A stretch of 64,000 nucleotides of DNA. Origin: a phage. Numbering within the stretch: position 1 is the stretch's first letter; each line of letters opens with the position of its first letter. The stretch lies in assembly GCA_017822615.1 (NCBI GenBank), contig GCA_017822615.1_4530.1; one strand, written 5' to 3'. The position numbers and the translations under genes were made by a program. Positions 38,989-55,292 of this stretch are shown one piece after another. The notes beneath the pieces were generated by a model. The model worked only from the letters and a program-made list of their open reading frames with translations, made no database searches and had not been told where the DNA came from.

Positions 38989-39184
38989 TTCTACCTCCTT
39001 CAATGCTTTGTGCCGTACCATCCCAAGCCATTAGAATGTTTTCCAATAGTTCACGAGGCTCTTTAAACCAAACTTCCATTTCATCAAGAATCTCGTCCGT
39101 GTCGTAAGTATAGCCTGGAACACCAAGTTCACATTTCTTAATATAACTTTCTAACCAACGATGATAAGTCTTAGCCCCATTCAT
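38981..39184 (-). CDS. hypothetical protein
   Basis: ORF track. Confidence 0.5.
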   Translation of the reverse strand: MNGAKTYHRWLESYIKKCELGVPGYTYDTDEILDEMEVWFKEPRELLENILMAWDGTAQSIEGGRNE

Positions 39185-39461
39185 ACTGTGCTACCTTTTC
39201 TTTTACCCAATCTACGCGATCTTTGTCATAATGTTGAGTGCCAAGAAAAAGACCATTGTGGAAGCTTTCAGCACCGAAAGGATAAATCGGATCTAAACCA
39301 TCTTCTTCAAATAACATTTTTAGTCTCTTTGATGTAGATTTCTTAGTCTCTGAATTGTAGCTTGTGGTTATAAGCCAGTCTTCCAAACAACGACACAAAC
39401 CTTGACGAGAGTCCCAAGGAAAAACACAATCTCCAACAGGAGCTTTTTCCGCCCATTCCAA
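39171..39461 (-). CDS. GLC/WVK paralog family member (N-terminal region in another frame)
   Basis: Carries GLCRCL, PFG and RVDWVKEK; the family N-terminal helix is encoded in the -1 frame upstream (ORF 39368..39508). Confidence 0.5.
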   Translation of the reverse strand: MEWAEKAPVGDCVFPWDSRQGLCRCLEDWLITTSYNSETKKSTSKRLKMLFEEDGLDPIYPFGAESFHNGLFLGTQHYDKDRVDWVKEKVAQYEWG

Positions 39462-39508
39462 CCAGCCTTTAAAAAGTTATACAATATGTAGTCTTCAGTG
39501 TAATACAT
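39368..39508 (-). CDS. small ORF with strong RBS; candidate frameshift partner of 39171..39461
   Basis: Reverse-strand AAGGAGG 5 nt before ATG at 39508; encodes MYYTEDYILYNFLKAGW...; track lists it from an upstream start. Confidence 0.4.
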   Translation of the reverse strand: MYYTEDYILYNFLKAGWNGRKKLLLEIVFFLGTLVKVCVVVWKTGL

Positions 39509-39559
39509 TAGCGCCTCCTTTACGTATACAATAACACCCCGCAGAACGGGGTGCAACTA

Positions 39560-40171
39560 TTATTTAATCTGTTTAAAAATTTCGTTTGGAACGGTACCGT
39601 TTAAAATACCTTCTACGATCTCTTGTGCAGATGTGTAAGAGAGTCCAAAAGAAGCTACGCCTAAAATTGCCTCCTTCAAAGGATCTGGCAGGGGTTCAAA
39701 ATTACCTGCAACAAAGCCACCTGCACAAGCAGCGCCTTCATCATCCCAGAAAACAACTGCTACATCGTTACCATGCGAAGTTGTGCGATGTGCAATAACT
39801 TCAACTTCGGTGCCTTCTTTAGGAACAGAATAAGAACTGTCCCAAGAATATCTTTCCAAATCAGGAACAAAGATAACCTTTTCACCTACTGGCGGCAGTT
39901 CACAACGATAATACCAAGAATTTTTTTCGTTCATTGCTTTATTTTCCTCCACGTCTTCAAAAGTAACGATCCAATCGTAGCCGTAAGAAAACGGATATTT
40001 TAGATCTAAAGAATAAGTTTGACCTAAATCGTCCTCAACAAGAACCATCCTGTCAAAGTTTGCGATGTTAGGATTATGTTTAATGACAGGGTATGTTTCC
40101 CCTACAGTAAATTGTCCTAAATGGTAAAGTTCATCTCTCCAAGTAATTTGGATATGAGTGCATTGAATCAT
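39560..40171 (-). CDS. hypothetical protein
   Basis: ORF track. Confidence 0.6.
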   Translation of the reverse strand: MIQCTHIQITWRDELYHLGQFTVGETYPVIKHNPNIANFDRMVLVEDDLGQTYSLDLKYPFSYGYDWIVTFEDVEENKAMNEKNSWYYRCELPPVGEKVIFVPDLERYSWDSSYSVPKEGTEVEVIAHRTTSHGNDVAVVFWDDEGAACAGGFVAGNFEPLPDPLKEAILGVASFGLSYTSAQEIVEGILNGTVPNEIFKQIK

Positions 40172-40175
40172 AAAA

Positions 40176-40448
40176 TCACCCCCAAGAAATATTTATATAT
40201 CTTACAATGTTTGCACTGTCTAAAGCCATGTTTGCACCACACCCACGCTCGCGCCAATAACTAACAATACCTTCACAGATACTCTCTTGTATCTTCTTAT
40301 CACTTGGCATTTCTAGTATAAGACTTGGGTTGTGGATGTTTATGTTATAATATCCTTCCTCTGCGGCTTGAGCTACCAATTTACTTACTTTTTCAAAGTA
40401 CGGGGAATTAGTGGCATCTGCCATTGTTTTTAAGGTTTGTCTATCCAT
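40176..40448 (-). CDS. hypothetical protein
   Basis: ORF track. Confidence 0.55.
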   Translation of the reverse strand: MDRQTLKTMADATNSPYFEKVSKLVAQAAEEGYYNINIHNPSLILEMPSDKKIQESICEGIVSYWRERGCGANMALDSANIVRYINISWG

Positions 40449-40846
40449 TATTCTGCCTCATCATAGAAGAAATCCAACTCTTGTTCCAGTTGTTTAACTC
40501 GCTCCTTAACCCACTGTACACGTTTTTCATTAAACATGCAACGTTTTTCCTTACACTCTTGCTCAAAAGATTTTGCTGTGTTAAACGGGAAAGTTGTATC
40601 TAAACCAGCATTTTCAAAACTGGCTAATTGCATACCATAAACAGAATATGCTAAAGAATGATCGGCTCGAAATTCATCACTTATATACATACGTAGACCT
40701 CGACATAAGCCAACATCAGCGTAACCACTTTCTCGTGGAAAGAGACGGAGGTGTTCTAACCAATTATTATAGAAATCTAAAAGAATCCTCTTACACTTCA
40801 AATCAATTGTCATAAAAAGTTTCTCCTTCATCGAACAAGTTGGCAA
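40448..40846 (-). CDS. GLC/WVK paralog family member
   Basis: LLDFYNNWL...GLCRGL...FPFN...RVQWVKERV. Confidence 0.6.
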   Translation of the reverse strand: MPTCSMKEKLFMTIDLKCKRILLDFYNNWLEHLRLFPRESGYADVGLCRGLRMYISDEFRADHSLAYSVYGMQLASFENAGLDTTFPFNTAKSFEQECKEKRCMFNEKRVQWVKERVKQLEQELDFFYDEAE

Positions 40847-41213
40847 GATTGTTCACCGCAATTTGGGTGGAAAGAAGACAACTGTTTGCAGACACATAAG
40901 CACGGGCTATTTTGTAAACATAAGCTTTCGTATTGCAATCTTCTAAAATCGGAAGACTTTCATCGATAGCATCTATAACACTAAACATCACATCTAAAAC
41001 TTTAATTGTAAGTATTGTATCTATATCTTCGTAACCTTTTTCAATCCGACCTGAATAGAAAGTATAGTCCTCAACAGTTCGTCGTTTAAATTGGCGCATA
41101 AAATCAGAACCATCTGTAGCAGAATTGAACAAATTTTCAAAAAATACCTCCCATCCGGCAAAAAGGGCTGACAGCATGATTAAGTGATCTACAGATTCAT
41201 TTTCTTGTTTCAT
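40803..41213 (-). CDS. hypothetical protein
   Basis: ORF track. Confidence 0.55.
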   Translation of the reverse strand: MKQENESVDHLIMLSALFAGWEVFFENLFNSATDGSDFMRQFKRRTVEDYTFYSGRIEKGYEDIDTILTIKVLDVMFSVIDAIDESLPILEDCNTKAYVYKIARAYVSANSCLLSTQIAVNNLANLFDEGETFYDN

Positions 41214-41221
41214 ATCCTCTC

Positions 41222-41899
41222 CTATTTAATGTTCAATCTAGCACACAAGCGAGAAACAGTTTTAGCATCCCACTTACCACCACGTGCTGTTGCGATTTTC
41301 TTACTATTGAATTTTTCAGCAATAGTTTTGTAAGGTGTATTTAAATCTCTAAGGATCTCCAAGCGTTCACGGAATGTCTCTGCAAAAGCGTCTGCTTTAA
41401 CAGAATTGTATTCCATTTTTCCTTTTCTACGTGCAGCGGCAGTTTTAGGATTAGCACTGCCTAATAAAACACCTTTGCTTTTTGCTACAGCAAGACCCTT
41501 TTTAATACGATCAGCAATACCTCTGACTTCTTGTTCAGCCAGAACAGACAGAAGCTGTATAACCATTTTATCTGCATCTGGCATGATGGCTATCTTAACA
41601 TCGATCATTTCTAGAAGAGTTGCTACGGAGGCGTTGTTACGACCCAAGCGGTCAACTTTAGCTACCAATAAAGTTGCTCCGGTAGCTTTACACATTTCAA
41701 CCGCTTTGACCAGTTCCTTACGTTGCTTCCAATCGCCCTTACCCGAATAGTATTCAGAAAATTGACCAATAACTTCAGCATCAGGCACAGAGTCTAAGAA
41801 GTAACGGATATCGTTCTCTTGGCTCTCCATACCATATTGTGCCTCACCTTTTTTCTGTTTAGAAAGACGACTGTAAACAACAAACTTTTTCATAACCAC
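41222..41899 (-). CDS. serine recombinase (resolvase/invertase family)
   Basis: YSRLS catalytic region, YYSGKG, LLVAKVDRLGRN, EQEVRGIADRIKKG; C-terminal HTH; reverse-strand TTGACA-17-TAAAGT upstream. Confidence 0.8.
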   Translation of the reverse strand: MVMKKFVVYSRLSKQKKGEAQYGMESQENDIRYFLDSVPDAEVIGQFSEYYSGKGDWKQRKELVKAVEMCKATGATLLVAKVDRLGRNNASVATLLEMIDVKIAIMPDADKMVIQLLSVLAEQEVRGIADRIKKGLAVAKSKGVLLGSANPKTAAARRKGKMEYNSVKADAFAETFRERLEILRDLNTPYKTIAEKFNSKKIATARGGKWDAKTVSRLCARLNIK

Positions 41900-41963
41900 T
41901 CCTAAACCATTGCTGTATTCTCACTTTACAAAACGAATAAACACTTGTCAAGGTATTTATTAT

Positions 41964-42176
41964 TTACAGCCATTCTACTTTTAAGCAGTATTCTTCGACA
42001 TGTTGTTTACGCTTGTTTTTGTCTATGTAAGTGTATTCAACAAATGTCCCAAGATAATCCTTGTCCACATTGTGTTGGCTATTAATTGGACATTTAGTAC
42101 GACAAACCCGTTGCCACTGACGAAGAATTACGGCTTTGTTTTTAGGATCAAAGGGATGAGGGTAATGTGCCTTCAT
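41964..42176 (-). CDS. hypothetical protein
   Basis: ORF track. Confidence 0.5.
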   Translation of the reverse strand: MKAHYPHPFDPKNKAVILRQWQRVCRTKCPINSQHNVDKDYLGTFVEYTYIDKNKRKQHVEEYCLKVEWL

Positions 42177-42500
42177 TCACGCCTCCTGTTTTAGTCGAAA
42201 AATATTTTGAATAACGAGAGATGTATAGTTATCACTTAGTCCCATAAGTTCTACTTCCAAGTTTCGAATATCTTCCACCGTAGGAGGATATGTTGGTAAA
42301 AATGCTTGAGCATTACCAGATCCAACCTCATTGCTGTAAGCAGTTGTAAAATTGTAAGATACAAAACATGAAACACCTTTTTGTCGGTACCCGATTAATC
42401 GACGAATACACCAGATAAGAGCCAAACCTATGAGAACACCTCCTAAACCAGCTAACAAGAAAGATAAGTTCATAATAGCTTCGTTAACAACTGCTTGCAT
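42177..42500 (-). CDS. membrane protein
   Basis: Hydrophobic LSFLLAGLGGVLIGLALIWCI. Confidence 0.55.
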   Translation of the reverse strand: MQAVVNEAIMNLSFLLAGLGGVLIGLALIWCIRRLIGYRQKGVSCFVSYNFTTAYSNEVGSGNAQAFLPTYPPTVEDIRNLEVELMGLSDNYTSLVIQNIFRLKQEA

Positions 42501-42510
42501 TCTTTTCTCC

Positions 42511-42858
42511 TTAGTTATGTAAACCCAAATGTGCTACAACTTCTCTACGATAAGATAACTGCATAGCGATTTTATAGCCAGGATGAAAACCATTTACATC
42601 AATGTCATCAAACCAAACCTCAAATGAACCGTGTTTAAGAGTCATTAAGTTAATATACCATTCAATAGTATAATGATCGTTAGCAATACCTTCGATGTAA
42701 AATTCTCGACAACAGTGAGATAAATCTTCACTTGTTTCACGTTTCCAGTCTTTGATAGCACCCTTCTCTTTGGCTTTATTCAGAATGTGGATCAGGTCTT
42801 CAACTTGCATATTCTCTCCTTTAGTTCCAACTAATAATGATGTGTTTGATAATCCCAA
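42511..42858 (-). CDS. hypothetical protein
   Basis: ORF track. Confidence 0.55.
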   Translation of the reverse strand: MGLSNTSLLVGTKGENMQVEDLIHILNKAKEKGAIKDWKRETSEDLSHCCREFYIEGIANDHYTIEWYINLMTLKHGSFEVWFDDIDVNGFHPGYKIAMQLSYRREVVAHLGLHN

Positions 42859-43375
42859 AAATACTGTGCTCTGCGGTTGCCAATGTTACATCCAAACCTT
42901 TTGCACGTAGTATTGTAGCTACAACATTTGCCCCTCTTTTCTGTTCACTTATCTGTTCATAAGAAGAAGGGTTATTGCACAAACCAAAACTGGAAGGTTC
43001 AAAGTATTTTTCAAACTTCCCTTGTTCCGCACAATCTTCAATCTCTAATAGAACGGCGTCTACCATTTCAGTAAAATGGGAATTTGCTTGCAGTGCTTTA
43101 TTACGCAGTTTATCACGTAAACTTCCCGTAGATTCTTCCTGCTCTTCTGTCTGTCCATCTTCACAGAAAGGATGAAGTTCAGCCCAGTCCCAAGCATCTC
43201 CTTCTAAAGCAAATGGAGTGTTGTAATTGAAGAAAGTGCAGCGCGGATATTCCCCGTTGAAAGAATCTTTCAGCAGGATATATTTCTTACCGTTTGCATG
43301 GAAGAGTTCTCCTTTGATAACCTTACCTACAAGGATATCACTGTTAGTGGAACGGGTGCAAATAAACTTTTTCAT
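42821..43375 (-). CDS. hypothetical protein
   Basis: ORF track. Confidence 0.6.
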   Translation of the reverse strand: MKKFICTRSTNSDILVGKVIKGELFHANGKKYILLKDSFNGEYPRCTFFNYNTPFALEGDAWDWAELHPFCEDGQTEEQEESTGSLRDKLRNKALQANSHFTEMVDAVLLEIEDCAEQGKFEKYFEPSSFGLCNNPSSYEQISEQKRGANVVATILRAKGLDVTLATAEHSIFGIIKHIIISWN

Positions 43376-43429
43376 GATTTTCTCCTCTCTGTTTCGATGA
43401 GATGATTATGACAAAGACAGATCCTTCTG

Positions 43430-43756
43430 TCAACCAATTATTTCTTCTGCTACACGTTCTTTTACCCAGTTCACACGATCCATATTCAAATGACAGCGGC
43501 TTTTTTCCGCTTCTAAGGTGTACTTTCCAAAATTACTGTTGAAAGGCAACACCATAACCAAATCTTTGCGGTAGAACTGCTCATGCATTTCATCCAGTAC
43601 AGGTTCGTATCGTTCGCTTTCCCCCATATCGTAAAAATCATAGAGGTTAGAGCACAAACCTGTGCAACGGGTGAACGGTTCACCTTCAGGAGCACCAGCT
43701 TCCAACCATGCCAAATACGTGCGGTAAAATGTTAATAGTTCTTCGCTCATTTCCAC
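43430..43756 (-). CDS. GLC/WVK paralog family member
   Basis: LTFYRTYLAWLEAGAPEG...GLCSNL...LPFN...RVNWVKERV. Confidence 0.65.
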   Translation of the reverse strand: MEMSEELLTFYRTYLAWLEAGAPEGEPFTRCTGLCSNLYDFYDMGESERYEPVLDEMHEQFYRKDLVMVLPFNSNFGKYTLEAEKSRCHLNMDRVNWVKERVAEEIIG

Positions 43757-43962
43757 TCTCCTTCATGTTTTTTAATATCATAGGAGTAGTATTCAAACAT
43801 ACTCATGCTCACCACACCTGCCATCTCTAAACAAAGAGGTTTGTCATTATAGAAGGCACTTACTGCTCTTCCTGCTTTGTGTGCTGCTTCTTCGGAATCG
43901 CAACCACAAACATTATGCACCCAAGAACCTGGACCATCATATTTAAGACGGACAATCCACAT
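43747..43962 (-). CDS. hypothetical protein
   Basis: ORF track. Confidence 0.55.
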   Translation of the reverse strand: MWIVRLKYDGPGSWVHNVCGCDSEEAAHKAGRAVSAFYNDKPLCLEMAGVVSMSMFEYYSYDIKKHEGEWK

Positions 43963-43964
43963 GG

Positions 43965-44192
43965 TTATTCCTCCATCTCAAACCATTCAGGGAACACTTT
44001 GCGGAAGACCCGCGTGTTTTCTAAGAGAAATGCCAACTCTTTTTCCAAATCTGCGTTCCAACCGTTTATTTTAACACGGATTGCCAATGCACTTGCACGG
44101 CGACTTAATTCTTGACAGATTGGATCACGCAGAACTATTGAATCATAAAACTGACAAACAGCTTCAAGTTCATACCAGTTATAATCCGACAT
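43965..44192 (-). CDS. hypothetical protein
   Basis: ORF track. Confidence 0.55.
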   Translation of the reverse strand: MSDYNWYELEAVCQFYDSIVLRDPICQELSRRASALAIRVKINGWNADLEKELAFLLENTRVFRKVFPEWFEMEE

Positions 44193-44518
44193 TATTCATC
44201 CTCCTCTGCAATACGATTTCTTACCCAATTAATTCTGTCCACGTTCAGGTGACAGGCATCTGCATCTGACTCTAAGACATATGCATCGTAGTTCTCATTG
44301 AAAGGGAGTTCTTGATTCAACCCTTTATGGTAAAACTGTGCGTGCATTTCATCTGACAAGGTTGTTATAATGGGGTTGTAATTACCTCTGTGCACATAAT
44401 CGAACAAGTTGGCACACAAACCACAATCCCGCCGAAAAGGTTTACCATCAGGAGCACCAACATCAATCCATGCTAGATAAATTTTATAAAACTCCATCAA
44501 CCTTGCGCTTGTTTTCAT
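44192..44518 (-). CDS. GLC/WVK paralog family member
   Basis: MEFYKIYLAWIDVGAPDG...GLCANL...LPFN...RINWVRNRI. Confidence 0.65.
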   Translation of the reverse strand: MKTSARLMEFYKIYLAWIDVGAPDGKPFRRDCGLCANLFDYVHRGNYNPIITTLSDEMHAQFYHKGLNQELPFNENYDAYVLESDADACHLNVDRINWVRNRIAEEDE

Positions 44519-44756
44519 TTAGCCACCTCGTTAGTTTTTCTTGCTCTTTGTTTGCGCGTTCTAAGCTTCTGAACTTTAAACAGAGGGAACGAGAATCCCT
44601 ACCCATGCACAAGCTTTCATCTAAGCTGTGCTCCCCAACCAACCAAAGAGAGTATGTTTGAACATCTAACCCATAGTTTCTGTCTTTCCATAATCTCACC
44701 CCAAGAACATCAAAAGGAGCTTCCGCGACTAAAGAAAGAAACCGATCTTTATTCAT
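44484..44756 (-). CDS. hypothetical protein
   Basis: ORF track. Confidence 0.5.
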   Translation of the reverse strand: MNKDRFLSLVAEAPFDVLGVRLWKDRNYGLDVQTYSLWLVGEHSLDESLCMGRDSRSLCLKFRSLERANKEQEKLTRWLNENKRKVDGVL

Positions 44757-44818
44757 ATTACACCACCTTGCTCACGTTGATAATGTATGTATACCATACA
44801 TAAAATAAATGTCAAGGC

Positions 44819-45019
44819 TTATCGACACAGATAGTTGTAACGATCTGCTTTATCCTCGGCTTCAGCAAAGTCAGCAATCAAGGAAGTTTTGAGTTCTTCC
44901 AACTCTTTCACCCAAGAGTCGTAATCGTTCTGTGTTTCTCCAATAGTTTGGAGAAAACAATCGTCGTAGCCAATAGACATGGCTAACTCGATAATACGTT
45001 CCAGTTTTTCTTCCATCAC
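44819..45019 (-). CDS. hypothetical protein
   Basis: ORF track. Confidence 0.5.
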   Translation of the reverse strand: MMEEKLERIIELAMSIGYDDCFLQTIGETQNDYDSWVKELEELKTSLIADFAEAEDKADRYNYLCR

Positions 45020-45498
45020 TTCTCTCCTTCTACAGACTTCTGTTTAACATAAAAGTAAGCACCACGAGCAAGATACAAATCATGTTCAATATCGCTCACA
45101 GGAAAACCATCTGGATTTTTAAAACCATCTTCTACAGCCAAAATGAGAGATCGTAAACTGATAGCTAACAACTCCATTTGATCTTGTAGTTTTCTATTTT
45201 CTGCGTAAAGGTTTTTGCATTTTTGTTCTGCATTTTTCCATTGTTCTAATGCATGATCATAGCGGTGCATAAGAATAGCTTTTTCTTGTTCACGCTTAAA
45301 AGTTTCTTCGCAAATGAAACCTGTGCCTAAACCAGTTTCTTCGTCTTTGACAAACACTTCAACAAAATCTTTAGACATATTATCTCCTATTTGCTTTCGG
45401 ATACTCCCAACCCTCTGGGAGATCTTCTTTACACATCCACTCAAAAGGCCAGCGACAATAACTGTGCCACTTTCCATTGAGATACAAACAATCTTCAT
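45016..45498 (-). CDS. hypothetical coiled-coil protein
   Basis: ORF track. Confidence 0.6.
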   Translation of the reverse strand: MKIVCISMESGTVIVAGLLSGCVKKISQRVGSIRKQIGDNMSKDFVEVFVKDEETGLGTGFICEETFKREQEKAILMHRYDHALEQWKNAEQKCKNLYAENRKLQDQMELLAISLRSLILAVEDGFKNPDGFPVSDIEHDLYLARGAYFYVKQKSVEGEK

Positions 45499-45643
45499 CT
45501 ACTGGTCCACAAGGGTTGATAACTACAACACACCCTTTTGCTCGCCAATATTGAACTATTTCAGGGTAAAAACAAGAAACGTCGGTCCACTCCCAAATAC
45601 GCTCATCATTCAAACGATATGCTGCTGGTAATGTTTCTTCCAT
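45380..45643 (-). CDS. hypothetical protein
   Basis: ATG at 45643 chosen so it does not overlap 45648..46103; track start 45670. Confidence 0.5.
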   Translation of the reverse strand: MEETLPAAYRLNDERIWEWTDVSCFYPEIVQYWRAKGCVVVINPCGPVDEDCLYLNGKWHSYCRWPFEWMCKEDLPEGWEYPKANRR

Positions 45644-45647
45644 ATTG

Positions 45648-46103
45648 TTAAACCTGAACCAAGGAGTCACGCCAATTAAGGTTGTTTCCTTCTCCTAAAT
45701 ACCAGCAATCTGCAACATTAAAAACTTCATAAGGAATACGCCACGCATAAGCGAAATCTGGAATCTCCGGTTTATGAGTGTAACCATAACGCTCGCCACT
45801 CGAATCTGTTGCAATATAATTAACAAATTCAGGAACATCTAAAGTTTCACCTTGATACTCTACACGCTTGAAGCCATCTTCCACTTCTTTCTCACCTTCA
45901 ACCAGACAAGCAAGAAGTTTGATGTGAGGGCAAGTGAAATCTTGTCCTGGATAACGTGAACGGATATCAGTTAACAATGCGATCACAGCATCCGATAACT
46001 CTTTATAATCCTCATATTTTACAAATGTGCCTTCTGTCGGATCATCAGGACACAAACGCCAAACATCGTTGCAGTTTACAGCATAATGTCTTATTTTAGT
46101 CAT
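45648..46103 (-). CDS. hypothetical protein
   Basis: ORF track. Confidence 0.6.
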   Translation of the reverse strand: MTKIRHYAVNCNDVWRLCPDDPTEGTFVKYEDYKELSDAVIALLTDIRSRYPGQDFTCPHIKLLACLVEGEKEVEDGFKRVEYQGETLDVPEFVNYIATDSSGERYGYTHKPEIPDFAYAWRIPYEVFNVADCWYLGEGNNLNWRDSLVQV

Positions 46104-46175
46104 AAATACCTCTATTCATATATTAAGAAACCCAAAATAATAACCAGAACAACGAAAATGATAGTCTCTATCATA

Positions 46176-46424
46176 TTACCAAGCTGCCACTACCCCAGTG
46201 CGTAGGGTTTCTTCATACCCCCAAATATCTGCACTAAGAGCAACAGCGGTCCATTCTGGGGACCAAGTAAAACCCAACAGGTCTGTCATCTTTTCAGCAT
46301 CTTTTTTAATGCTTTCTTCATCAGAGAAAACACGGTAAAGATCTTCCAACTCTTTTGTAATCTCTACACGTTCTTCTTCGGTAATCGGTGTTCCTACACG
46401 ATCAGTAGTAAAAACATTCAGCAT
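46176..46424 (-). CDS. hypothetical protein
   Basis: ORF track. Confidence 0.55.
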   Translation of the reverse strand: MLNVFTTDRVGTPITEEERVEITKELEDLYRVFSDEESIKKDAEKMTDLLGFTWSPEWTAVALSADIWGYEETLRTGVVAAW

Positions 46425-46433
46425 AATATCCCC

Positions 46434-46832
46434 TTATCGTTGCGTACAATCAGCTTCTAGAGTAAGAACATTCGTTATTGTTTTATCATTTTTTAGAAAT
46501 GCAAACCAAGCCAAAGTGTCTCGATACTCTGTGCGCATCATCACAACTTCAGTAGTGCCAATAAACTGCTGTGAACCGTACATAGAACTTCCATCTTTAC
46601 TCTTTCCTCCTGTGTTTTGAAGAATACCGCTCATCAAAGCACCACCCGAATTTTTAAGGATAAAAGAGTTATCTTTATTAATGACAACAGAAGCCATTTT
46701 CTTAGGACCAGAAATCACTTCACCTTTCAGATTTTTAACAACTACATCTGATACACACTCATAAACTTGAGACGCACTTGCTGTTCCAAGTGATGCAATG
46801 AGTAACAAGAAACCTACGATGATCTTTTTCAT
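46434..46832 (-). CDS. secreted protein with signal peptide
   Basis: Internal start MKKIIVGFLLLIASLGTASASQ is signal-peptide-like; track start 46907. Confidence 0.55.
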   Translation of the reverse strand: MKKIIVGFLLLIASLGTASASQVYECVSDVVVKNLKGEVISGPKKMASVVINKDNSFILKNSGGALMSGILQNTGGKSKDGSSMYGSQQFIGTTEVVMMRTEYRDTLAWFAFLKNDKTITNVLTLEADCTQR

Positions 46833-46927
46833 ATAAACTCTCCTCTTTATTTGCCCGACGCGCCCCTGTTGGGCGGAAAGGGTTGTACGCAAAATTTTTA
46901 GCTCCAATCGTCGGGTGTCCCGACTCC

Positions 46928-47134
46928 TTACGCTTTTAATGTTTTAACAGAATGACAAGCTTTGCAAACAATAACCGGAACAAGTTCATCTCCATTATCC
47001 GCATAAATCACTGTTTTCTTCATTCTGCCACCGCATGAACAATACTCTGTATGATCCGCAGGAATATTAAATATTCCGTAATCACTTTCATACTGTTTCT
47101 TACATATGGACACTGCTTTCGTAAAACAAGACAT
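46928..47134 (-). CDS. small zinc-ribbon protein
   Basis: CSCGG...CKAC cysteine pairs. Confidence 0.5.
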   Translation of the reverse strand: MSCFTKAVSICKKQYESDYGIFNIPADHTEYCSCGGRMKKTVIYADNGDELVPVIVCKACHSVKTLKA

Positions 47135-47136
47135 GC

Positions 47137-47358
47137 CTACTCCGCAAGAACCTTCACTTCGTCAGAGAAGAATACGTAATCACAACCTTCCCAAACATCT
47201 TCTTCAAACCACTCCCATCCCTCGACTTTGGACATTTCTTCTATCGTAACAAAGAATGTTGTCATATCATCGCTAACAAGATGTGCTTCAACAACAAAAG
47301 GAATCTGAACATTCTCAAAACCAACATAACCCAATACATCACAAACTCTAATTTTCAT
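47137..47358 (-). CDS. hypothetical protein (MKIRV/DYVFF pair, member 1)
   Basis: Shares MKIR..., EGWEWFEED..., DYVFF with 50650..50880. Confidence 0.55.
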   Translation of the reverse strand: MKIRVCDVLGYVGFENVQIPFVVEAHLVSDDMTTFFVTIEEMSKVEGWEWFEEDVWEGCDYVFFSDEVKVLAE

Positions 47359-47359
47359 A

Positions 47360-47560
47360 TTATGCTCCTTTGTAGATTATGTTGGTGCGTTCACACTCTG
47401 CCACCAGCAAGCGATTAGCAATGTTGTCCATAGGAACATCAATCTCTACGCTCCAAGCGTTGATATACACTTCTTCAATCTTTGCTCCAAGCATTTGTGC
47501 GATCAGAGCAACAGCGCCAGCATACTCAAGTTTAATCTCAATTACCATTTTGCACCTCAA
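47360..47560 (-). CDS. hypothetical protein
   Basis: ORF track. Confidence 0.5.
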   Translation of the reverse strand: MRCKMVIEIKLEYAGAVALIAQMLGAKIEEVYINAWSVEIDVPMDNIANRLLVAECERTNIIYKGA

Positions 47561-47562
47561 GG

Positions 47563-47799
47563 TTATTTGTCTTGCTTGTATCTTACAAGGCGATCACACT
47601 CCAGGTCAAGAAATTTCTCCGCATTTCGTTCATGTTTGAGCACAATACATTGTTCTTTCCAGTCTGTAGCTCTTTGCTGCGCTGCTCCTGGGTCAAAATC
47701 CCAAAGCCATGCCGCGAAAAGAACAACCATAACAATTACCAAGAAACTAAACACTATTGGCATTGCACATCCTCCTGTGTAGCATGATCTTTTACCCAT
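47563..47799 (-). CDS. hypothetical membrane-anchored protein
   Basis: Hydrophobic IVFSFLVIVMVVLFAAWL. Confidence 0.5.
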   Translation of the reverse strand: MGKRSCYTGGCAMPIVFSFLVIVMVVLFAAWLWDFDPGAAQQRATDWKEQCIVLKHERNAEKFLDLECDRLVRYKQDK

Positions 47800-48068
47800 T
47801 TTATACGGGCAGCATTCAAATGCAATAGCCCGTTTCTTTGTGCAAAATCATATTTAAACCAATCTCCGTCATCAAACGGGTATTCTTCAGACAACCCTGC
47901 TTCGTGGAATTGCATTTGCATTTCATAATTTAGATCATCATAGCCACCAGACCAAAGATAGAGGCAACTGCACAAACCTTTATCATGCCAGAAAGGATTA
48001 TTATCTGGAGCACCAGCTAACAGCCAATTATGATAGGTTTGATAAAATTCTTTAAGTTCCTCTGACAT
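47754..48068 (-). CDS. GLC/WVK paralog family member
   Basis: KEFYQTYHNWLLAGAPDN...GLCSCL...YPFD...RIKWVKDH. Confidence 0.65.
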   Translation of the reverse strand: MSEELKEFYQTYHNWLLAGAPDNNPFWHDKGLCSCLYLWSGGYDDLNYEMQMQFHEAGLSEEYPFDDGDWFKYDFAQRNGLLHLNAARIKWVKDHATQEDVQCQ

Positions 48069-48266
48069 TTAGCCTCCCGTATGCAGTGTTGAAAGATACA
48101 CAGCAAAAGCATTCTCGGCTGTTTTAACCTCCTCTTCAAGATCTTCACGCTCTGCTGGCGTTAGCGCATTTCGCACAGCAGCGTCTGCTTCTCGGATTTT
48201 TCTTACTAAACGTGAAACATCTTTCAATTGTTGAAAAGTAGCCATAATCTTCCTCCTTTTAGTCAA
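48069..48266 (-). CDS. hypothetical protein
   Basis: ORF track. Confidence 0.5.
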   Translation of the reverse strand: MTKRRKIMATFQQLKDVSRLVRKIREADAAVRNALTPAEREDLEEEVKTAENAFAVYLSTLHTGG

Positions 48267-48558
48267 ACCAGTTGTATTCAGAAGGGTAACGAGCGTAGTT
48301 TGGCTTATACCCCAGCCTTTTCATCTTAACAGACATACGAGTGAAGCCAAAGGTTGTTTTGCCCTTAGACATAAACTTCTTCCCGCTCTTCATTGGCTTC
48401 TTAGGGTTTTTGATCGTCTGGTGTAACGCTCGCGCAAGCCACAAAGTGTATGCGCTCGGCACTTGATTAACTTTCATCTTGTTACCTTTCATCGAAACCT
48501 CCTCAGTGAACTTCGTGCCAAGTGCCAAACTCTTCTGCTGATACTTTAGGAACGGCAT
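48259..48558 (-). CDS. hypothetical basic protein
   Basis: ORF track. Confidence 0.5.
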   Translation of the reverse strand: MPFLKYQQKSLALGTKFTEEVSMKGNKMKVNQVPSAYTLWLARALHQTIKNPKKPMKSGKKFMSKGKTTFGFTRMSVKMKRLGYKPNYARYPSEYNWFD

Positions 48559-48730
48559 GAGTTTCTCGGTATTTGTTTAAAGCTTTCTCAATGGCTGTAG
48601 CAAAAACATCTTGTGATTTATAAGGCATATAATAAGAGCGTCCCATGTATGCCACTGCATCACGTAATTCTTCTGCTTGCTCTTGTGTAACTGTCAATGT
48701 GATAGTAACCATTATTTCACCTCCGACCAA
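48503..48730 (-). CDS. hypothetical protein
   Basis: ORF track. Confidence 0.5.
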   Translation of the reverse strand: MVGGEIMVTITLTVTQEQAEELRDAVAYMGRSYYMPYKSQDVFATAIEKALNKYRETHAVPKVSAEEFGTWHEVH

Positions 48731-49011
48731 TCAATAGTGATCCACTCGTATGCCCCGTTCAGATCCATTTCTTTATAAACAATAAGCCCACGCTCACGAA
48801 GAATTGCTACTGCTTCATCCATCCACTTCACCTGATTGTAGATCTCCCCTGGGTGGGTAGGGGAATTATCCAGACCAAAATCAGATGGCGTGAAATTTCT
48901 TGAAGAGTTTCCCGCTCGTGCTTCAGCAAAACATGTCTCGATCACTTCTTCAACAGGGAAGTTGAAGGAAGCTTCTTTTGCAATACGGCGTAACTGTTCG
49001 GTCAGATTCAT
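48712..49011 (-). CDS. hypothetical protein
   Basis: ORF track. Confidence 0.55.
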   Translation of the reverse strand: MNLTEQLRRIAKEASFNFPVEEVIETCFAEARAGNSSRNFTPSDFGLDNSPTHPGEIYNQVKWMDEAVAILRERGLIVYKEMDLNGAYEWITIDWSEVK

Positions 49012-49038
49012 TTTATTCTCCTTTCGTTGTGCGAAACA

Positions 49039-49476
49039 TTACAGCAGATCTAATGCTTTCAACTCTTCTTTCAATGATTCAGGCAGGTCACATTCAATGT
49101 CAATCAGAGATAACAAGTGACCAACAATGCCTTCCAGATGTTGATACTCACTATAACTTATAAATTCAGAATTGTAAACAGAAACATCCTTAGTTTCTTT
49201 CACAACTTCCCCCGCAGACACGCACATAAAAAAGTTACGCTCTCCGCGAGCTAACAATATCTCCCAACTTCTGAACGGATACTGTCCAGCTTCAATAATA
49301 TCTCCGCTGTCCAATAAAGTCAATGAGCAAACAGACCCTGATTCACTAACATCTTCGACGCGGAAACAAGACCCTTCAATCAAAGCTGCCATTTTGAAAT
49401 TTTCATCAGAGATCATAGAGAAAGCTTCACATGCAGCTTTGCTTTTGAAACAGTAAACAGCATTAATTTTAAACAT
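49039..49476 (-). CDS. hypothetical protein
   Basis: ORF track. Confidence 0.6.
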   Translation of the reverse strand: MFKINAVYCFKSKAACEAFSMISDENFKMAALIEGSCFRVEDVSESGSVCSLTLLDSGDIIEAGQYPFRSWEILLARGERNFFMCVSAGEVVKETKDVSVYNSEFISYSEYQHLEGIVGHLLSLIDIECDLPESLKEELKALDLL

Positions 49477-49488
49477 AACATTCTCCTT

Positions 49489-49947
49489 TTAAACAAAAGA
49501 TACGCCGATGGTAGCAACAACCAAACGTTTATAAACTTCAACCTCTTCTGTAGGATTAGCCATTTTATGCTCCGCTGCTTCTTTCAAAGCTTCTTCATAA
49601 TTTTGAGATCCAGAAATACAGGTGTCACCAGTCATTACAACATACCACTCTTCTTTTGTTGTATCAACAGGTTCTTCTTGGGGTTTTCCACGACCACCAC
49701 GAACACCACCGTCAACAAAATAATCTATATGAGCAGAATTGATTATGTAACGATCCCCATCACCAGCAGTGATAATACCATCTCTCATACCTATTACAAC
49801 CATTGACAAGATATTACCATTTGCATCAGTGCTCAACACCTCGAAAAAATTCTCTCCAATGATAGCCGCAATACTGTTATCAAAGGTAGAATATAGTCGC
49901 ATATAATCCTCATCCTGGAAACGGTAGACATGACCTTCTTTAAACAT
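49489..49947 (-). CDS. hypothetical protein
   Basis: ORF track. Confidence 0.6.
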   Translation of the reverse strand: MFKEGHVYRFQDEDYMRLYSTFDNSIAAIIGENFFEVLSTDANGNILSMVVIGMRDGIITAGDGDRYIINSAHIDYFVDGGVRGGRGKPQEEPVDTTKEEWYVVMTGDTCISGSQNYEEALKEAAEHKMANPTEEVEVYKRLVVATIGVSFV

Positions 49948-50401
49948 TGCTCTCTCCTCCTAGTTCATCATACCATTTCAAAGCGTCTTTTGGAAGCATA
50001 CCAAAATCTTCTTTCAATTCTTTTTCAATCTCTTCTTGCATTTCCATCAGCATTTTCAGTTGGCGTATTTTCTTCCGTAACAAAGCTTCCCGTTCACTGT
50101 TGCTTGGTGTTACTTCGTTTGCTGTTACCATTACATATCCTGTCGGAGAGCAAGGAAGATAATCATCAATATTTTCTAAAGCATAACGATAATTGGAGTC
50201 CAGGAAGTTTACATGCACTCGATCACATCCAAACAACGTGGCACGAAATACTTCATAACGAGTTTCAGATAAGATATGTTGCACACAGACAATGCCTACA
50301 TCATTTTGCACTGCACAGGTTACATTTAATAAACTTGAGTGTTCTTTGACATAATCTACAACACATTGCACATGCGCTTCCAGTATAGATGGTTGTCTCA
50401 T
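49940..50401 (-). CDS. hypothetical protein
   Basis: ORF track. Confidence 0.6.
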   Translation of the reverse strand: MRQPSILEAHVQCVVDYVKEHSSLLNVTCAVQNDVGIVCVQHILSETRYEVFRATLFGCDRVHVNFLDSNYRYALENIDDYLPCSPTGYVMVTANEVTPSNSEREALLRKKIRQLKMLMEMQEEIEKELKEDFGMLPKDALKWYDELGGESNV

Positions 50402-50646
50402 TTTCTACCTCCCCATAATGCTAACATTTTATTGAAAATGGAAACGCGTCGTGCGCGAGATGCCATATCATAATTCATTCTTTCCGTCTCTGCAAGAAAT
50501 TGATCTACTGTAATCAACGCTTCTGTCTTCTCTTTCAGAGTTTGCATATTCATCCATTCACATTCAGAGTACCAATTATCGAAATACAAACTATCGAGAA
50601 GATCCATTGCTGCTTCATTCTGTTGTGGTGTGATCATTGCACACAA
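50398..50646 (-). CDS. hypothetical protein
   Basis: ORF track. Confidence 0.55.
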   Translation of the reverse strand: MCAMITPQQNEAAMDLLDSLYFDNWYSECEWMNMQTLKEKTEALITVDQFLAETERMNYDMASRARRVSIFNKMLALWGGRK

Positions 50647-50649
50647 CCT

Positions 50650-50880
50650 TTAATAGACAATTTCATATTCGTGAGGAAAGAAAACATAATCTTCCCCTTC
50701 TCGTGCATCTATCTCGTCCCAAAACCATTCCTGCACTTCCATCATCTTCGAGAATCGCACATGAGCAAGCCCACTGTATTCCACTGTAGCTTCCAACACA
50801 AGTGGAAATTTTGCATGTGCCAATCCTTTATAACCACCATCATTCTCAATACGAATTTTCATGCGTTTCATGTTATGCAT
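50650..50880 (-). CDS. hypothetical protein (MKIRV/DYVFF pair, member 2)
   Basis: MKIRIENDGG...WFWDEIDAREGEDYVFF parallels 47137..47358. Confidence 0.55.
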   Translation of the reverse strand: MHNMKRMKIRIENDGGYKGLAHAKFPLVLEATVEYSGLAHVRFSKMMEVQEWFWDEIDAREGEDYVFFPHEYEIVY

Positions 50881-51082
50881 CCTTCAGACCCTTAATAAAG
50901 TAACGACCAACCGGATTCCCTCGGAAGTATTCGTTAATGAAATCGATAACACACGTTTCACTGCCTGTCACAACGGACGGCTTAAAGTTTTGGAATTCTA
51001 CAACTACACGGCTGGCTTTAGCCAGTGCTTGCACACGTGTAGGATCAGTCAAGAACATTGTGACAGTTTTCAAATTCTTCAT
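50873..51082 (-). CDS. hypothetical protein
   Basis: ORF track. Confidence 0.5.
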   Translation of the reverse strand: MKNLKTVTMFLTDPTRVQALAKASRVVVEFQNFKPSVVTGSETCVIDFINEYFRGNPVGRYFIKGLKDA

Positions 51083-51131
51083 TTCATCTCCTCATTGGCT
51101 ATCTGTTATGTCATCCATTATACAAACATCT

Positions 51132-51515
51132 TTATTCAATGCAAGCATTATTTGCATCTTCAATCCGATCTTTCACCCACTGAAGACGTAACGTGTTGGT
51201 ATGACACGCCAAGTTTATACACTCTGAAAGGTAATCCATGCAATCCACATTGAACGGAAGATTGTAGTCCAGCCCTGCACATGTAAATTGTTTCCTCATT
51301 TCATATTTCAAACGGTCCAACAAATGATCACGCCATTTTCTATCTTCTTCTCTAGGTGTATCACCAACAAAATCATCTACATAATCTACCAGACAACCAC
51401 ATAAGCCACTCGTTGTGCGATTCATTGCAGGATAGTTGGCAATCCATGCTTTATAGAAGCGAAGCAATGTTGCACTGCTCAATGGAATACTATTTGTCAT
51501 CTTTCTCTCCTTCAT
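51132..51515 (-). CDS. GLC/WVK paralog family member
   Basis: LLRFYKAWIA...SGLCGCL...LPFN...RLQWVKDRI. Confidence 0.65.
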   Translation of the reverse strand: MKERKMTNSIPLSSATLLRFYKAWIANYPAMNRTTSGLCGCLVDYVDDFVGDTPREEDRKWRDHLLDRLKYEMRKQFTCAGLDYNLPFNVDCMDYLSECINLACHTNTLRLQWVKDRIEDANNACIE

Positions 51516-51834
51516 AATCTTGAATTCTATCTAGCACCCATTGTATACGATGTTTGTTTTTATGGCAAATATGTTTTTTATGTTCAAAGGTGTATTCCTC
51601 ATAACCACCTTCATTAAACGGGAAATTGTAATCCAATCCTGCACCAATAAACTGTGATTTCATCTCTTGTTGTAGACGAGGTAACAGTTCATCAGGGTAT
51701 GTTCCCTCTACATACTTAATCAAACATATGCACAAACCACTCGTTGTGTGACCTTCTACCTCACCAGCAAGCCAAGCTTTGTAAAACTTCATTAGACGTA
51801 AACTACTTAACGGAACATTTTTACTCTCTTGCAT
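51490..51834 (-). CDS. GLC/WVK paralog family member
   Basis: LMKFYKAWLA...SGLCICL...FPFN...RIQWVLDRI; RBS gagaggag on reverse strand. Confidence 0.65.
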   Translation of the reverse strand: MQESKNVPLSSLRLMKFYKAWLAGEVEGHTTSGLCICLIKYVEGTYPDELLPRLQQEMKSQFIGAGLDYNFPFNEGGYEEYTFEHKKHICHKNKHRIQWVLDRIQDYEGEKDDK

Positions 51835-52173
51835 GACAATCTCCTCTCATCGTTAGCCATCTTTCATGGCAATCATCAATCACCAACATCATACGATCAA
51901 TCTTAAGGAATTACAATCGATTTATCATAGGGGATTCCTATCAATTATCCCATATATACCGATTATTTTTGACACCCCGCTCTTGTATAAAAAGTAACCC
52001 AAAATATCTACGGGGAGAGATTATTTCGGGACACCCTGTTTCATGGCAATCATGGCAAGAATATCTAATAGAATCAATATCATATGGCAAAAATCATGGC
52101 GCATACGTAAGAAGTGCTTAACGCGAATTTTCGGGCCGTCAGGTCCACGCAGCGACAATTCCCAAATATCATG

Positions 52174-52196
52174 CGAATGAGAATAATTATCATTCG
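52174..52196. promoter_or_regulatory. 23-bp near-perfect palindrome, Fur-box-like operator
   Basis: cgaatgagaataattatcattcg; resembles the GATAATGATAATCATTATC-type AT-rich dyad. Confidence 0.4.
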
Positions 52197-52353
52197 TATT
52201 CAATGACTTATGCAAGGCTCATGCCAACATAGCGACAAGGTGGGCCACCTGATTATAAATCACACAAACACTTATTTATCAATGGCTTGGCAACTTCATC
52301 ATATGACGGAACAATGTCAACTAATCCCGCTCATGACAGACGGACTATTATTT

Positions 52354-52374
52354 ATATGAGAATGATTATTATTT
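52354..52374. promoter_or_regulatory. iteron-like site (ATGAGAATGATT motif)
   Basis: atatgagaatgattattattt shares the ATGAGAATGATT core with the iterons at 63829-63944. Confidence 0.35.
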
Positions 52375-53089
52375 AAACGTTTATTAACATATAAACTAAA
52401 ATAAATCAAGAATTTTCTGATTTTATTTACGTTTAAGAGAACTTGCTCAACATATCGCTACGCGATAGTATTCGCCCCCAAAAGATTAGCCTTTATTTTC
52501 TTGTATGTTTATACACTATGTGCACACTATGCAACCTGTCGCTATTCGCTCATGTTGCTACGTGCAATTATTCATCTTGCTAATGATCTCATCTTGTAAT
52601 TACCACAATGATTATTGTTATTGCGCTAATGTTATGATCTTGGTAATTACATATAATGCTAATAATAAGCCAGCGCAATAAGTGTAAGCGTCATTACGCT
52701 TGCAATTATTGCAAGCTACGCAGTAACAAGAAATAACCGTCACCGATGGTTATGATTGTTGGGGTGTAGTTGGCTTATTATTAGCTCGCTATGTGTCCGG
52801 CATAGCGTGCTAATGATGACTCTGTGAATGATTCGTTTTGTAATGATTTCATTCATGCACTATTTTGCTAATAGTTATTATTTTAATGGTTTCGTTTGTT
52901 ATTGTTCGTTAGTTGGTTGTTTTGTCGTGTTATCGTTATCTTGCTTAGTATTCATCATGGTTTGATTGTTTGTCGTTATCAATCATCTTGCTATTATTCC
53001 TTTGATTATGATTAGTTTGCTTATTGTTTTAGGTTGTTGGTTAGTTAGTTGTTGCGAACTATTATCAACATTATAATTATGCGCTTATA

Positions 53090-53130
53090 TTGCATAGATA
53101 ATCATGGGTAGATGATAATGGTTATCATTG
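53090..53130 (+). promoter_or_regulatory. promoter-like element overlapped by a Fur-box-like site
   Basis: TTGCAT 53090-53095, about 17 nt, GATAAT; gatgataatggttatcattg 53111-53130 matches about 14/19 of the Fur consensus. Confidence 0.35.
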
Positions 53131-53151
53131 CACTAGAAAGGAGGTAAAAGG

Positions 53152-53250
53152 GTGTTTTTGATGGTTTGTTGTTGGTTGTTGATCGATTTTAACCGCTATA
53201 AATGGCTCTCTAACAGCCTGTTACCCTGGGAGGTATGGTTATTCGTTTAA
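53152..53250 (+). CDS. candidate small hydrophobic Trp/Cys-rich peptide (32 aa)
   Basis: AAGGAGG 53138-53144 placed 7 nt before GTG 53152; peptide MFLMVCCWLLIDFNRYKWLSNSLLPWEVWLFV; not in track. Confidence 0.25.
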   Translation: MFLMVCCWLLIDFNRYKWLSNSLLPWEVWLFV

Positions 53251-53333
53251 TGGTTGATTAGCTCGATACCGCGATTTATTCAATTTTGTTCTGTGTCGGT
53301 TTTTCATAGGCGAAAGCTATCAACATTGTTCGG

Positions 53334-53364
53334 GCAAAAAGAAAGGGCGCTTGGTGCGCCCCTT
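53334..53364 (-). terminator. rho-independent terminator (aagggcgc hairpin family)
   Basis: Hairpin aagggcgc-ttggt-gcgcccctt; reverse strand followed by ctttcttttt; ends the early block. Confidence 0.65.
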
Positions 53365-54323: not shown

Positions 54324-54383
54324 GGGCTTGCTGTATTGCTCGCCCTACGCAATAACTATAAGTTAACAGGAGCTATAAAGCAA
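54324..54383 (-). promoter_or_regulatory. early promoter + 5' GC-hairpin cassette (degenerate hairpin)
   Basis: Reverse strand TTGCTT (54378-54383), 17 nt, TATAGT (54355-54360), then TAGGGCG and weak hairpin 54324-54345. Confidence 0.55.
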
Positions 54384-54384
54384 G

Positions 54385-54618
54385 TTATTTTTTATAAAAT
54401 TTTTCTGCTGTGATATTCTTCCCAGTAGGCTTAACCACTTGCAAGATCTTATCATGTGCCGAACGTCCAAAAGAGTAAGATCCGTACACGGTAAACCAAT
54501 AATCCCCGTTAGGTTGAACGGTTACGGCGGCGTACGGTGTACCTCTTTCATTATCCCCGATAAAGTGAGAAACATTACCGTTAACATTTGGTGTAGTGCT
54601 TTTAATTTGTTCGATCAT
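54385..54618 (-). CDS. hypothetical early protein
   Basis: ORF track. Confidence 0.6.
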   Translation of the reverse strand: MIEQIKSTTPNVNGNVSHFIGDNERGTPYAAVTVQPNGDYWFTVYGSYSFGRSAHDKILQVVKPTGKNITAEKFYKK

Positions 54619-54639
54619 GATATGACTCCTAAATCAGAT

Positions 54640-54695
54640 GGGAAACATTCCCGCCCTACGTGATAAATAATAATGTAAGCGTGATCCGGTGTCAA
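54640..54695 (-). promoter_or_regulatory. early promoter + 5' GC-hairpin cassette
   Basis: Reverse strand TTGACA (54690-54695), 17 nt, TATTAT (54667-54672), TAGGGCGG, hairpin gggaa-aca-ttccc 54640-54652. Confidence 0.6.
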
Positions 54696-55007
54696 TAGGT
54701 GGGATTGTAAAGATTTGATAGTTTATCTCTTTGATGTTTTGTTGTTTGATAGGTGTTAGCTATCAATATATAGCGGGGTCTTCCGGTGATTATCTTCCCC
54801 TGCTCCCAGGTGCCGCCCGTTCAATAAGTATAACAAAAAACAGGACTATTGCAAGCCCTGTTTATTTATCTTAAAACCAGTTGCCAACCGTTTCTAATAG
54901 GTCGCTGACTACCAGGACAACATTGATCAGCACATGTTCAACCATGAAGGGAATAAGCGCCAGCGTTGCTACTACGATCCCCATTGTGATGATTACCTTT
55001 CTCATGG

Positions 55008-55292
55008 TTAGCGGCTTACGTAAGCTTTACCGTTTACGGTCATCGGTATGGCCTCAAGGTCTGGATCTTCCTTAAGGTCGCGTGCAAGCTCACCGCACCG
55101 GATACCCTCGAATCCGTAGTACTCTGTTGTGCCATCCTGGAAAGTTTTAGCGGCAAGGCATAGGCGATAATTAACACCGATCCGGTTCACTGCGTTGATA
55201 TCGGTTAACGTGATGGATTCAGGCAACTCATTAGCCAGTACAGGCGCGTTAATACCAACAACCAGGGCAACTACTGCGATCATCTTTTTCAT
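55008..55292 (-). CDS. secreted early protein (signal peptide)
   Basis: MKKMIAVVALVVGINAPVLA signal-peptide-like N-terminus. Confidence 0.6.
   Translation of the reverse strand: MKKMIAVVALVVGINAPVLANELPESITLTDINAVNRIGVNYRLCLAAKTFQDGTTEYYGFEGIRCGELARDLKEDPDLEAIPMTVNGKAYVSR

Follow-up and report, generated by a model that had tools for sequence, protein, structure and literature searches.

Seven scattered genes of a phAPEC8-like coliphage belong to a large phage protein family that includes gp3 of N4

The seven genes and their phage

We analysed 64,000 nucleotides of phage DNA (GenBank assembly GCA_017822615.1, contig GCA_017822615.1_4530.1; this whole stretch is called the window below), in which seven minus-strand genes between positions 39171 and 51834 code for small proteins that, with near certainty, form one family of paralogs, PHROG 2510, related to gp3 of phage N4. 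The part of the window that holds them, from 39 to 52 kilobases (kb), is 96-98% identical across 93-96% of its length to the Escherichia phage phAPEC8, and many other Phapecoctavirus genomes (Stephanstirmvirinae) match it at the same level. Judged by this similarity, the window belongs to a Phapecoctavirus, a phAPEC8-like coliphage. The family genes are spread across 12.7 kb of the accessory block of this myovirus, a run of small minus-strand genes. The phAPEC8 counterparts of the seven copies, numbered here by position from 1 to 7, are gp211, gp214, gp219, gp222, gp233, gp244 and gp245, every one annotated as "hypothetical protein"; the window copies are 92-99% identical to them, and their exact sequences are already in public collections, again as hypothetical.

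A preliminary description of the window, made from the letters of the sequence, had reported seven minus-strand open reading frames (ORFs) as members of one family. All seven were recovered where it had placed them; the positions stand, and four of the extents need correcting, since the starts of copies 2, 3 and 6 that are supported by a Shine-Dalgarno (SD) site differ from those first given and copy 1 is frameshifted. Counting these corrected starts, an SD site precedes the start codon in all seven copies.

Copy 1 (39171..39508, minus strand like all the others) is the gp211 ortholog, matched by the family hidden Markov model (HMM) with an expectation value (E) of 1.6e-18. Its ATG lies at 39508, behind the SD site AAGGAGG, and a deletion of one nucleotide in a homopolymer run (A5 at 39471-39475 on the plus strand, against A6 in phAPEC8 and phAPEC8_ev052) places this ATG and the first helix (MYYTEDYILYNF…) out of frame with the remainder. 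The ORF 39171-39461 is the portion downstream of the frameshift, lacking helix 1, and restoring the missing base gives a protein of 112 amino acids. The frameshift is either a sequencing error or the mark of a genuine pseudogene. A 67-amino-acid "member" of the copy-1 cluster, considered as a truncated copy, was rejected, being the neighbouring gene. A terminator-like hairpin (39554-39534, minus strand) stands immediately upstream of the copy-1 SD site and ATG.

Copy 2 (40448..40813; gp214 ortholog) has 121 amino acids when read from its SD-supported ATG, and carries a methionine in place of the histidine of the H-x-N motif. Copy 3 (43430..43750; gp219 ortholog, 106 amino acids) is 52% identical to copy 4 and is not present in phAPEC8_ev052; copy 4 itself (44192..44518; gp222 ortholog, 108 amino acids) is the member that was chosen for the structure model, and copy 5 (47754..48068; gp233 ortholog) has 104 amino acids. 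The last two genes form an overlapping pair: copy 6 (51132..51500; gp244 ortholog, 122 amino acids), which has a long insert between helices 2 and 3, starts 11 nucleotides inside the end of copy 7 (51490..51834; gp245 ortholog, 114 amino acids), which heads the minus-strand block and is 49% identical to copy 6. The proteins of the window are probably soluble, about 105-120 amino acids long and acidic, with isoelectric points (pI) of 4.5-5.9.

One family by descent

Aligned with MAFFT, the seven proteins share 12 invariant columns (W, G-L-C, L, F, L, P-F and R..W-V), with pairwise identities of 21-52% and copies 3/4 (52%) and 6/7 (49%) as the closest pairs. When all ORFs of the window of at least 45 amino acids were compared with each other by BLASTP, the seven formed one connected group, the largest paralog group of the window, in which 18 of the 21 pairs scored E<1e-4 and the best 2e-39. 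All seven match PHROG 2510 ("unknown function") with E from 1e-22 to 3e-32. Family HMMs, built either from the seven copies or from 171 diverse relatives, both pick out these seven from all six-frame ORFs of the window; nothing further scores E<=1 with the wide model or E<=10 with the narrow one. From the BLASTP, PHROG and HMM results together we conclude that the similarity reflects homology and not composition, so that the objection of a merely compositional likeness, which the preliminary description had itself raised, falls away and its claim of a seven-member paralog family is upheld. That the resemblance could be due to chance or composition, or that these ORFs are not genes at all, is favoured by their short length only; against it stand the BLASTP values down to 2e-39, the PHROG matches down to 3e-32, the 1,603 homologous clusters described below, an SD site at every copy and ratios of nonsynonymous to synonymous substitution rates (dN/dS) well under 1, and we give it a negligible probability.

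The motifs that first drew attention to these genes (an FY..W helix, GLC, PF(N/G), H-x-N and R-x-x-WV) are all real, and all but the histidine are kept throughout the family. Within about 100 amino acids, the ordered series F-Y-x-x-W, G-L-C, E-M-x-x-Q-F, P-F-(N/G) and N-x-x-R-x-x-W-V is present in the seven, copy 1 as sequenced in the window being without the first of these owing to its frameshift. Across the 171 domains, this set is conserved at 82-100%, except for the methionine of E-M (61%) and the asparagine of P-F-N (71%).

The family is truly a diversified one, as first described, and no curated database names it. Scans against Pfam and NCBIfam returned sub-threshold noise only, whether run on the seven proteins or on relatives that are long or distant; a PADLOC scan of the seven gave nothing better than E=0.023 (PifA, 11 bits); and PDB sequence searches with two profiles and one single sequence yielded no usable match. 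Literature searches for the PHROG identifier found nothing relevant.

Size and distribution of the family

An exhaustive profile search across 1.84 billion cluster representatives (clusters at 50% identity) found 1,603 clusters at E<=1e-3, of which 670 at E<=1e-10. Family members are mostly single-domain proteins of 98-130 amino acids, with pI<6 in 71% of these single-domain members, and some relatives hold two or three tandem domains (for instance those of 211, 231, 244, 344 and 376 amino acids). Adjacent pairs such as copies 7/6 occur elsewhere as fused two-domain proteins; among the 33 and 15 close relatives returned by two word-index homology searches, there were no domain fusions.

All relatives whose source is named are phage proteins, from virulent phages of Proteobacteria. 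They include N4 gp3, phi92 gp006, gp323 (two domains) and gp339 (three domains) of the Burkholderia jumbo phage BcepSaruman, and a protein of Citrobacter phage Tr1, with further relatives in T1-like Drexlerviridae and in phages of Rhizobium, Ralstonia, Achromobacter, Delftia, Erwinia, Pectobacterium, Klebsiella and Yersinia. The family spans podo-, sipho-, myo- and jumbo phages of alpha-, beta- and gamma-proteobacteria. A tblastn search with copy 4 found it at 633 places in 260 phage records and in 1 of 72,556 plasmids. On this evidence the family, including the early protein gp3 of N4, is large and appears to be phage-only, the latter term resting on the source-named relatives and on the tblastn samples of phage records and plasmids.

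An apparently new helical fold, and the metal-binding idea

The model of copy 4 is all-helical and confidently predicted (predicted local distance difference test score, pLDDT, 94.9; predicted template modelling score, pTM, 0.87), with five helices at 5-19, 34-43, 50-64, 77-85 and 93-107. It gave no match to an enzyme or any other known fold, and it would represent a five-helix bundle without a solved relative, apparently a new fold.

Conservation was scored on the 171 domains, which were taken from the 150 best representatives and have a mean identity of about 25%. In profile numbering, the most constant positions are R98 (100%), P75 and F76 (99-100%), and G32, L33 and C34 (95-99%), followed by L12, F15, Y16 and W19 (91-95%), N95 (91%), W101 and V102 (87-94%), E60, Q64 and F65 (82-96%), Y83 (84%), G69 and L70 (78-87%) and E86 (78%); N36 (73%), N77 (71%) and H93 (66%) are less strictly kept. 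The segments between helices vary in length, from 2 to 26 residues between helices 1 and 2, from 11 to 34 between helices 2 and 3, and from 11 to 28 in the third variable segment. A helical-wheel calculation on a 121-sequence alignment, in copy-4 numbering and as an inference from sequence and not from coordinates, places the conserved residues L7, F10, Y11, Y14, L34, C35, L38, M58, F62, I96, V99 and I103 on hydrophobic faces, and N37, E57, Q61, Y80, E83, R95 and W98, plus H90, N92 and N74, off these faces or in loops.

These data bear directly on the suggestion, made from the conserved cysteine and histidine of the window copies, that the proteins have a small metal-binding fold. The window copies do hold 3-7 cysteines and 2-5 histidines each, and GLC together with C-H-x-N is common to five of the seven, all of which would suit a small zinc fold. 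Against this, a single cysteine is conserved family-wide (99%); the second one, which precedes the histidine, is conserved in 42% of the 171 domains and the histidine in 66%, its place being taken by tyrosine in 15% of the domains and by methionine in copy 2. As many as 23 of the 171 domains have a single cysteine and five have no histidine. The model is a well-packed helical bundle in which the conserved cysteine, on the hydrophobic face of helix 2 according to the helical wheel, behaves as a core residue, and no similarity to zinc-binding folds was found. A set of three or four conserved Cys/His ligands is not seen, so that a metal site does not appear to be a feature of the family, and we find the idea of a zinc fold scarcely credible; individual copies with extra cysteines could bind metal. 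We also considered a papain-like Cys-His-Asn triad, prompted by the cysteine at a helix N-terminus and the downstream H-x-N, and rejected it because the histidine is conserved at 66%, is a methionine in copy 2, and the fold is a small helical bundle.

Old subfamilies in a mosaic block

The presence of seven diversified copies in one block had been read as the signature of an arms race, and this part of the preliminary description is not sustained. In 12 of 13 ortholog comparisons (window against phAPEC8, phAPEC8_ev052 or phiWec188) dN/dS is 0.03-0.24, which indicates that the genes are maintained by purifying selection; the one outlier, 1.65, comes from a comparison with hardly any substitutions (dS 0.019). 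When the window is set against phiWec188, copies 1, 2, 5, 6 and 7 share just 27-50% identity with their positional counterparts, and the neighbouring genes outside the family are equally divergent, so that the whole block is mosaic and the family has not been specially accelerated. The number of copies is 6, 7 or 9 in close relatives: phAPEC8 has seven, all inside the corresponding block (97% of the genome scanned), phAPEC8_ev052 has six, without the copy-3 type, and phiWec188 has nine, with the positional order kept.

Three of the copies are older lineages. Copies 1 and 5 are nearer to homologs of other phage groups than to any paralog of the window; for copy 5, identity to a protein of a Drexlerviridae siphophage is 46.5%, against at most 39.6% to its paralogs. 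The closest relative of copy 2 (60%, in metagenomic contigs) likewise lies outside the window set, and its next-best outside matches (31-36%) are no closer than its paralogs (33-34%). On these comparisons the set is composed of old subfamilies and of two younger duplications (3/4 and 6/7), and does not stem from one recent burst. Several copies resemble homologs of other phage families more closely than they resemble one another, which fits functionally distinct subfamilies that have been kept together.

Gene position in other phages

In N4, gp3 (1214-1528) is flanked by gp2 and gp4 and belongs to the early region at the left end, upstream of the genes for RNAPII. According to a review of N4 transcription (PMC4496689), the injected virion RNA polymerase transcribes this region, and gp1 and gp2 serve as RNAPII cofactors. 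In phiAxp-3, an N4-like Achromobacter phage, the homolog occupies the equivalent left-end cluster. In RSB1, a T7-like Ralstonia phage, it is ORF5, two genes ahead of a gp0.7-like kinase, in what would, going by T7, be the class I early region. A Drexlerviridae phage, Bas95 and a Straboviridae phage carry their homolog among small hypothetical genes. Early expression is supported by gene position in three other phage lineages (N4, phiAxp-3 and RSB1), and from these we infer an early timing in the phage of the window as well. The host-takeover setting that had been proposed for the seven genes agrees with their being small accessory genes, with these early-region homologs and with the variable copy number.

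Other features of the block and the window

PHROG and Pfam scans of ten neighbour genes returned "unknown function" only, save for one serine recombinase/resolvase-like gene (41222-41899, minus strand; Pfam Resolvase, E 5e-18; PHROG "DNA invertase"), which stands in the middle of the accessory block of a virulent myovirus and which related records label variously as a resolvase, a recombinase or, wrongly, a "methionine ABC transporter ATP-binding protein". An 82-amino-acid ORF (46176-46424, minus strand) has no counterpart in the phAPEC8, phAPEC8_ev052 and phiWec188 loci that were compared and may have entered the mosaic block as an insertion specific to this strain. Two adjacent minus-strand genes, 49039-49476 and 49489-49947, both match PHROG 3710 (E 1.8e-7 and 2.5e-34) and are probably distant paralogs of each other; the annotation of phAPEC8_ev052 calls their counterparts "RNA metabolism moderator of RB51" and "goF mRNA metabolism modulator of RB69", and Pfam gave these labels no support.

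Two other minus-strand paralog pairs were seen within the block, 42824-43405/48715-49038 (BLASTP E 2e-7) and 47140-47376/50653-50883 (1e-10), and three elsewhere in the window, namely 59849-60064/61309-61485, 59910-60173/62662-62937 and 18106-19104/20542-21390, the last of which probably code for nucleotide-sugar epimerases, to judge from the phAPEC8 annotation. Between copy 7 and a terminator-like hairpin at 53364-53342, there is a region of about 1.5 kb without a long ORF (51835-53340), in which neither a tRNA nor an Rfam match was found; phAPEC8 has the same ORF-poor gap of about 1.5 kb.

Further along, from 54340 to 63164, at least 15 copies of a unit of about 70 nucleotides were found on both strands. 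In its functional reading, on the minus strand, the unit consists of TTGACA, about 25 nucleotides, TATCACRTAGGGCGG and then, directly, a GC-rich hairpin (GGCGGCAATGGTGCCGCC). The pattern CCGCCCTAYGTGATA, with at most three mismatches, has 16 matches against 1.35 expected, 15 of them within 54340-63164. The units correspond to the "PHIRE/MEME promoters" annotated in phAPEC8, and the arrangement looks like one promoter-plus-hairpin per small gene.

What the proteins may do

Our preferred reading is that the seven proteins work early in infection, in the cytoplasm, as binding modules for host takeover or counter-defence. They would be soluble and non-enzymatic, would be made before replication begins or at about that time, and would have host proteins as their targets, bound either for takeover or to neutralise effectors of defence or toxin systems. 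The core of the bundle would be built by the conserved L/F/Y/W, GLC, M..F, PF and I..V residues, and the off-core cluster N37, E57, Q61, Y80, E83, H90, R95 and W98 (copy-4 numbering) would form a recognition surface common to all, with the target of each paralog set by the loops of variable length between helices 1 and 2, 2 and 3, and 4 and 5. The proteins would probably act as dimers or higher oligomers, because naturally fused tandem domains and the overlap of genes 7 and 6 suggest two domains working together. Binding in preference to catalysis, oligomerisation and the nature of the targets are what we infer, and we put the whole forward tentatively, as a reading that may well be right and may somewhat more easily be wrong.

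Several points weigh against it. A literature search on the function of N4 gp3 found no paper, and none was found on the transcriptome of a Phapecoctavirus. A scan of the block for sigma-70 promoters did no better than on shuffled sequence, and the promoter-hairpin units of 54.3-63.2 kb do not occur in the paralog block (34-52 kb), so that they do not establish its timing. The ortholog dN/dS values give no sign of pervasive positive selection, and the solvent exposure of the conserved cluster is a matter of helical-wheel arithmetic and not of coordinates. Finally, the cysteine, proline, arginine and tryptophan, together with several polar residues, are near-invariant across phages of alpha-, beta- and gamma-proteobacteria, which is unusual for inhibitors of fast-evolving host proteins; a universal ligand or a catalytic site would fit equally well.

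The main rival explanation starts from this last point: the domain would be a binder of small molecules or else a minimal enzyme. The residues C35, E57, Q61, N74, Y80, E83, H90, N92, R95 and W98 would then line a pocket whose ligand, such as a nucleotide-based immune signal, is shared by all Proteobacteria, and the paralogs would be sponges of differing specificity. It draws support from the conservation of the cysteine (99%), proline (100%), arginine (100%) and tryptophan (94-99%) in 171 domains of such low mean identity, from that of the glutamate, glutamine, asparagine and tyrosine residues (78-91%), from a very broad host range, as distant as Rhizobium and Escherichia, from the tandem fusions, which suggest oligomers as in known sponges, and from the presence of several diverged copies per genome. 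The copy-4 model, as said above, resembles no enzyme, and we consider this explanation quite unlikely.

The proteins could also be regulators internal to the phage, degenerate helix-turn-helix-like bundles that bind phage DNA, RNA or the transcription machinery and so set the timing of gene expression, with one paralog for each transcription unit. For a winged-helix or helix-turn-helix regulator, neither a significant fold match nor a basic DNA-binding surface was found, and we think this very improbable.

Returning to host takeover or counter-defence by binding, a bolder form of the idea, which we regard as unlikely, would see in the family a counter-defence platform used phage-wide on a new fold, with each paralog neutralising a different immune effector or sequestering a different signal. 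If this were true, Phapecoctavirus would carry an anti-immunity toolkit of 6-9 members on one scaffold, and N4 gp3 and the T7-like, T1-like and jumbo-phage relatives would be its single-purpose versions. More generally, among uncharacterised phage-only domain families this is one of the larger, and phages that are used for E. coli therapy have it expanded to 6-9 copies. Seven proteins of 100-120 amino acids plus N4 gp3, in a model host, make a cheap and well-defined experimental target, and should the family prove to be a scaffold for host takeover or anti-defence, thousands of phage genes would be annotated at once.

Comparison with known systems

The label "Anti-restriction nuclease" is attached to one database copy of the copy-6 cluster, and T4 Arn (the anti-restriction nuclease of that phage) and T4 AsiA are small early phage proteins, as the present ones probably are. 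We rejected this label, since the hhalign probability against the family profile was 0.14% for Arn, 0.10% for AsiA and 0.4% for Arn.2; nor did the likeness to T4 Arn find a PDB sequence or fold match. Atd1, an anti-defence gene reported for Phapecoctavirus, codes for a MazG-like pyrophosphatase unrelated to the family. Compared with solved anti-defence proteins, such as the DNA mimics Ocr, ArdA and Arn and the sponges Acb2, Tad1 and Tad2, no similarity of sequence or fold was found.

The nearest functional analogy, and it is an analogy only, is with the immunity proteins of colicin DNases, Im7 and Im9. These are small, acidic and all-helical proteins that occur in paralog arrays, in which a conserved face provides affinity and a variable segment specificity. 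No sequence or structural relationship to the family was found; they have four helices against five here, and another genetic context.

Within the family, the proteins gp339 (three domains) and gp323 (two) of BcepSaruman and the two-domain protein of Citrobacter phage Tr1 repeat the same domain along one polypeptide. They parallel the adjacent copies 7/6, with the difference that the domains are fused there and are separate genes in the window.

By sequence, N4 gp3 (ABK54374.1, 104 amino acids) is the closest named relative, and it is the best-known member of the family. It is a single domain of the same length as the window proteins, carries every motif of the family (…YQEWL…GLC…LPFN…Y..E…CHLN..R..WI), scores 72 bits (E 2e-22) against the HMM of 171 domains, and shares 32-33% identity with copies 3 and 4. 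A single copy is present in N4, in an early operon transcribed by the virion RNA polymerase, whereas the phage of the window has seven, scattered over 12.7 kb; the comparison yields a family and a hint of timing, and no mechanism. What was already known is that these sequences exist in databases as hypothetical proteins and are grouped in PHROG 2510; what is new is how large the family is, that it is linked to N4 gp3, that its fold is apparently a new one and that it has expanded in Phapecoctavirus.

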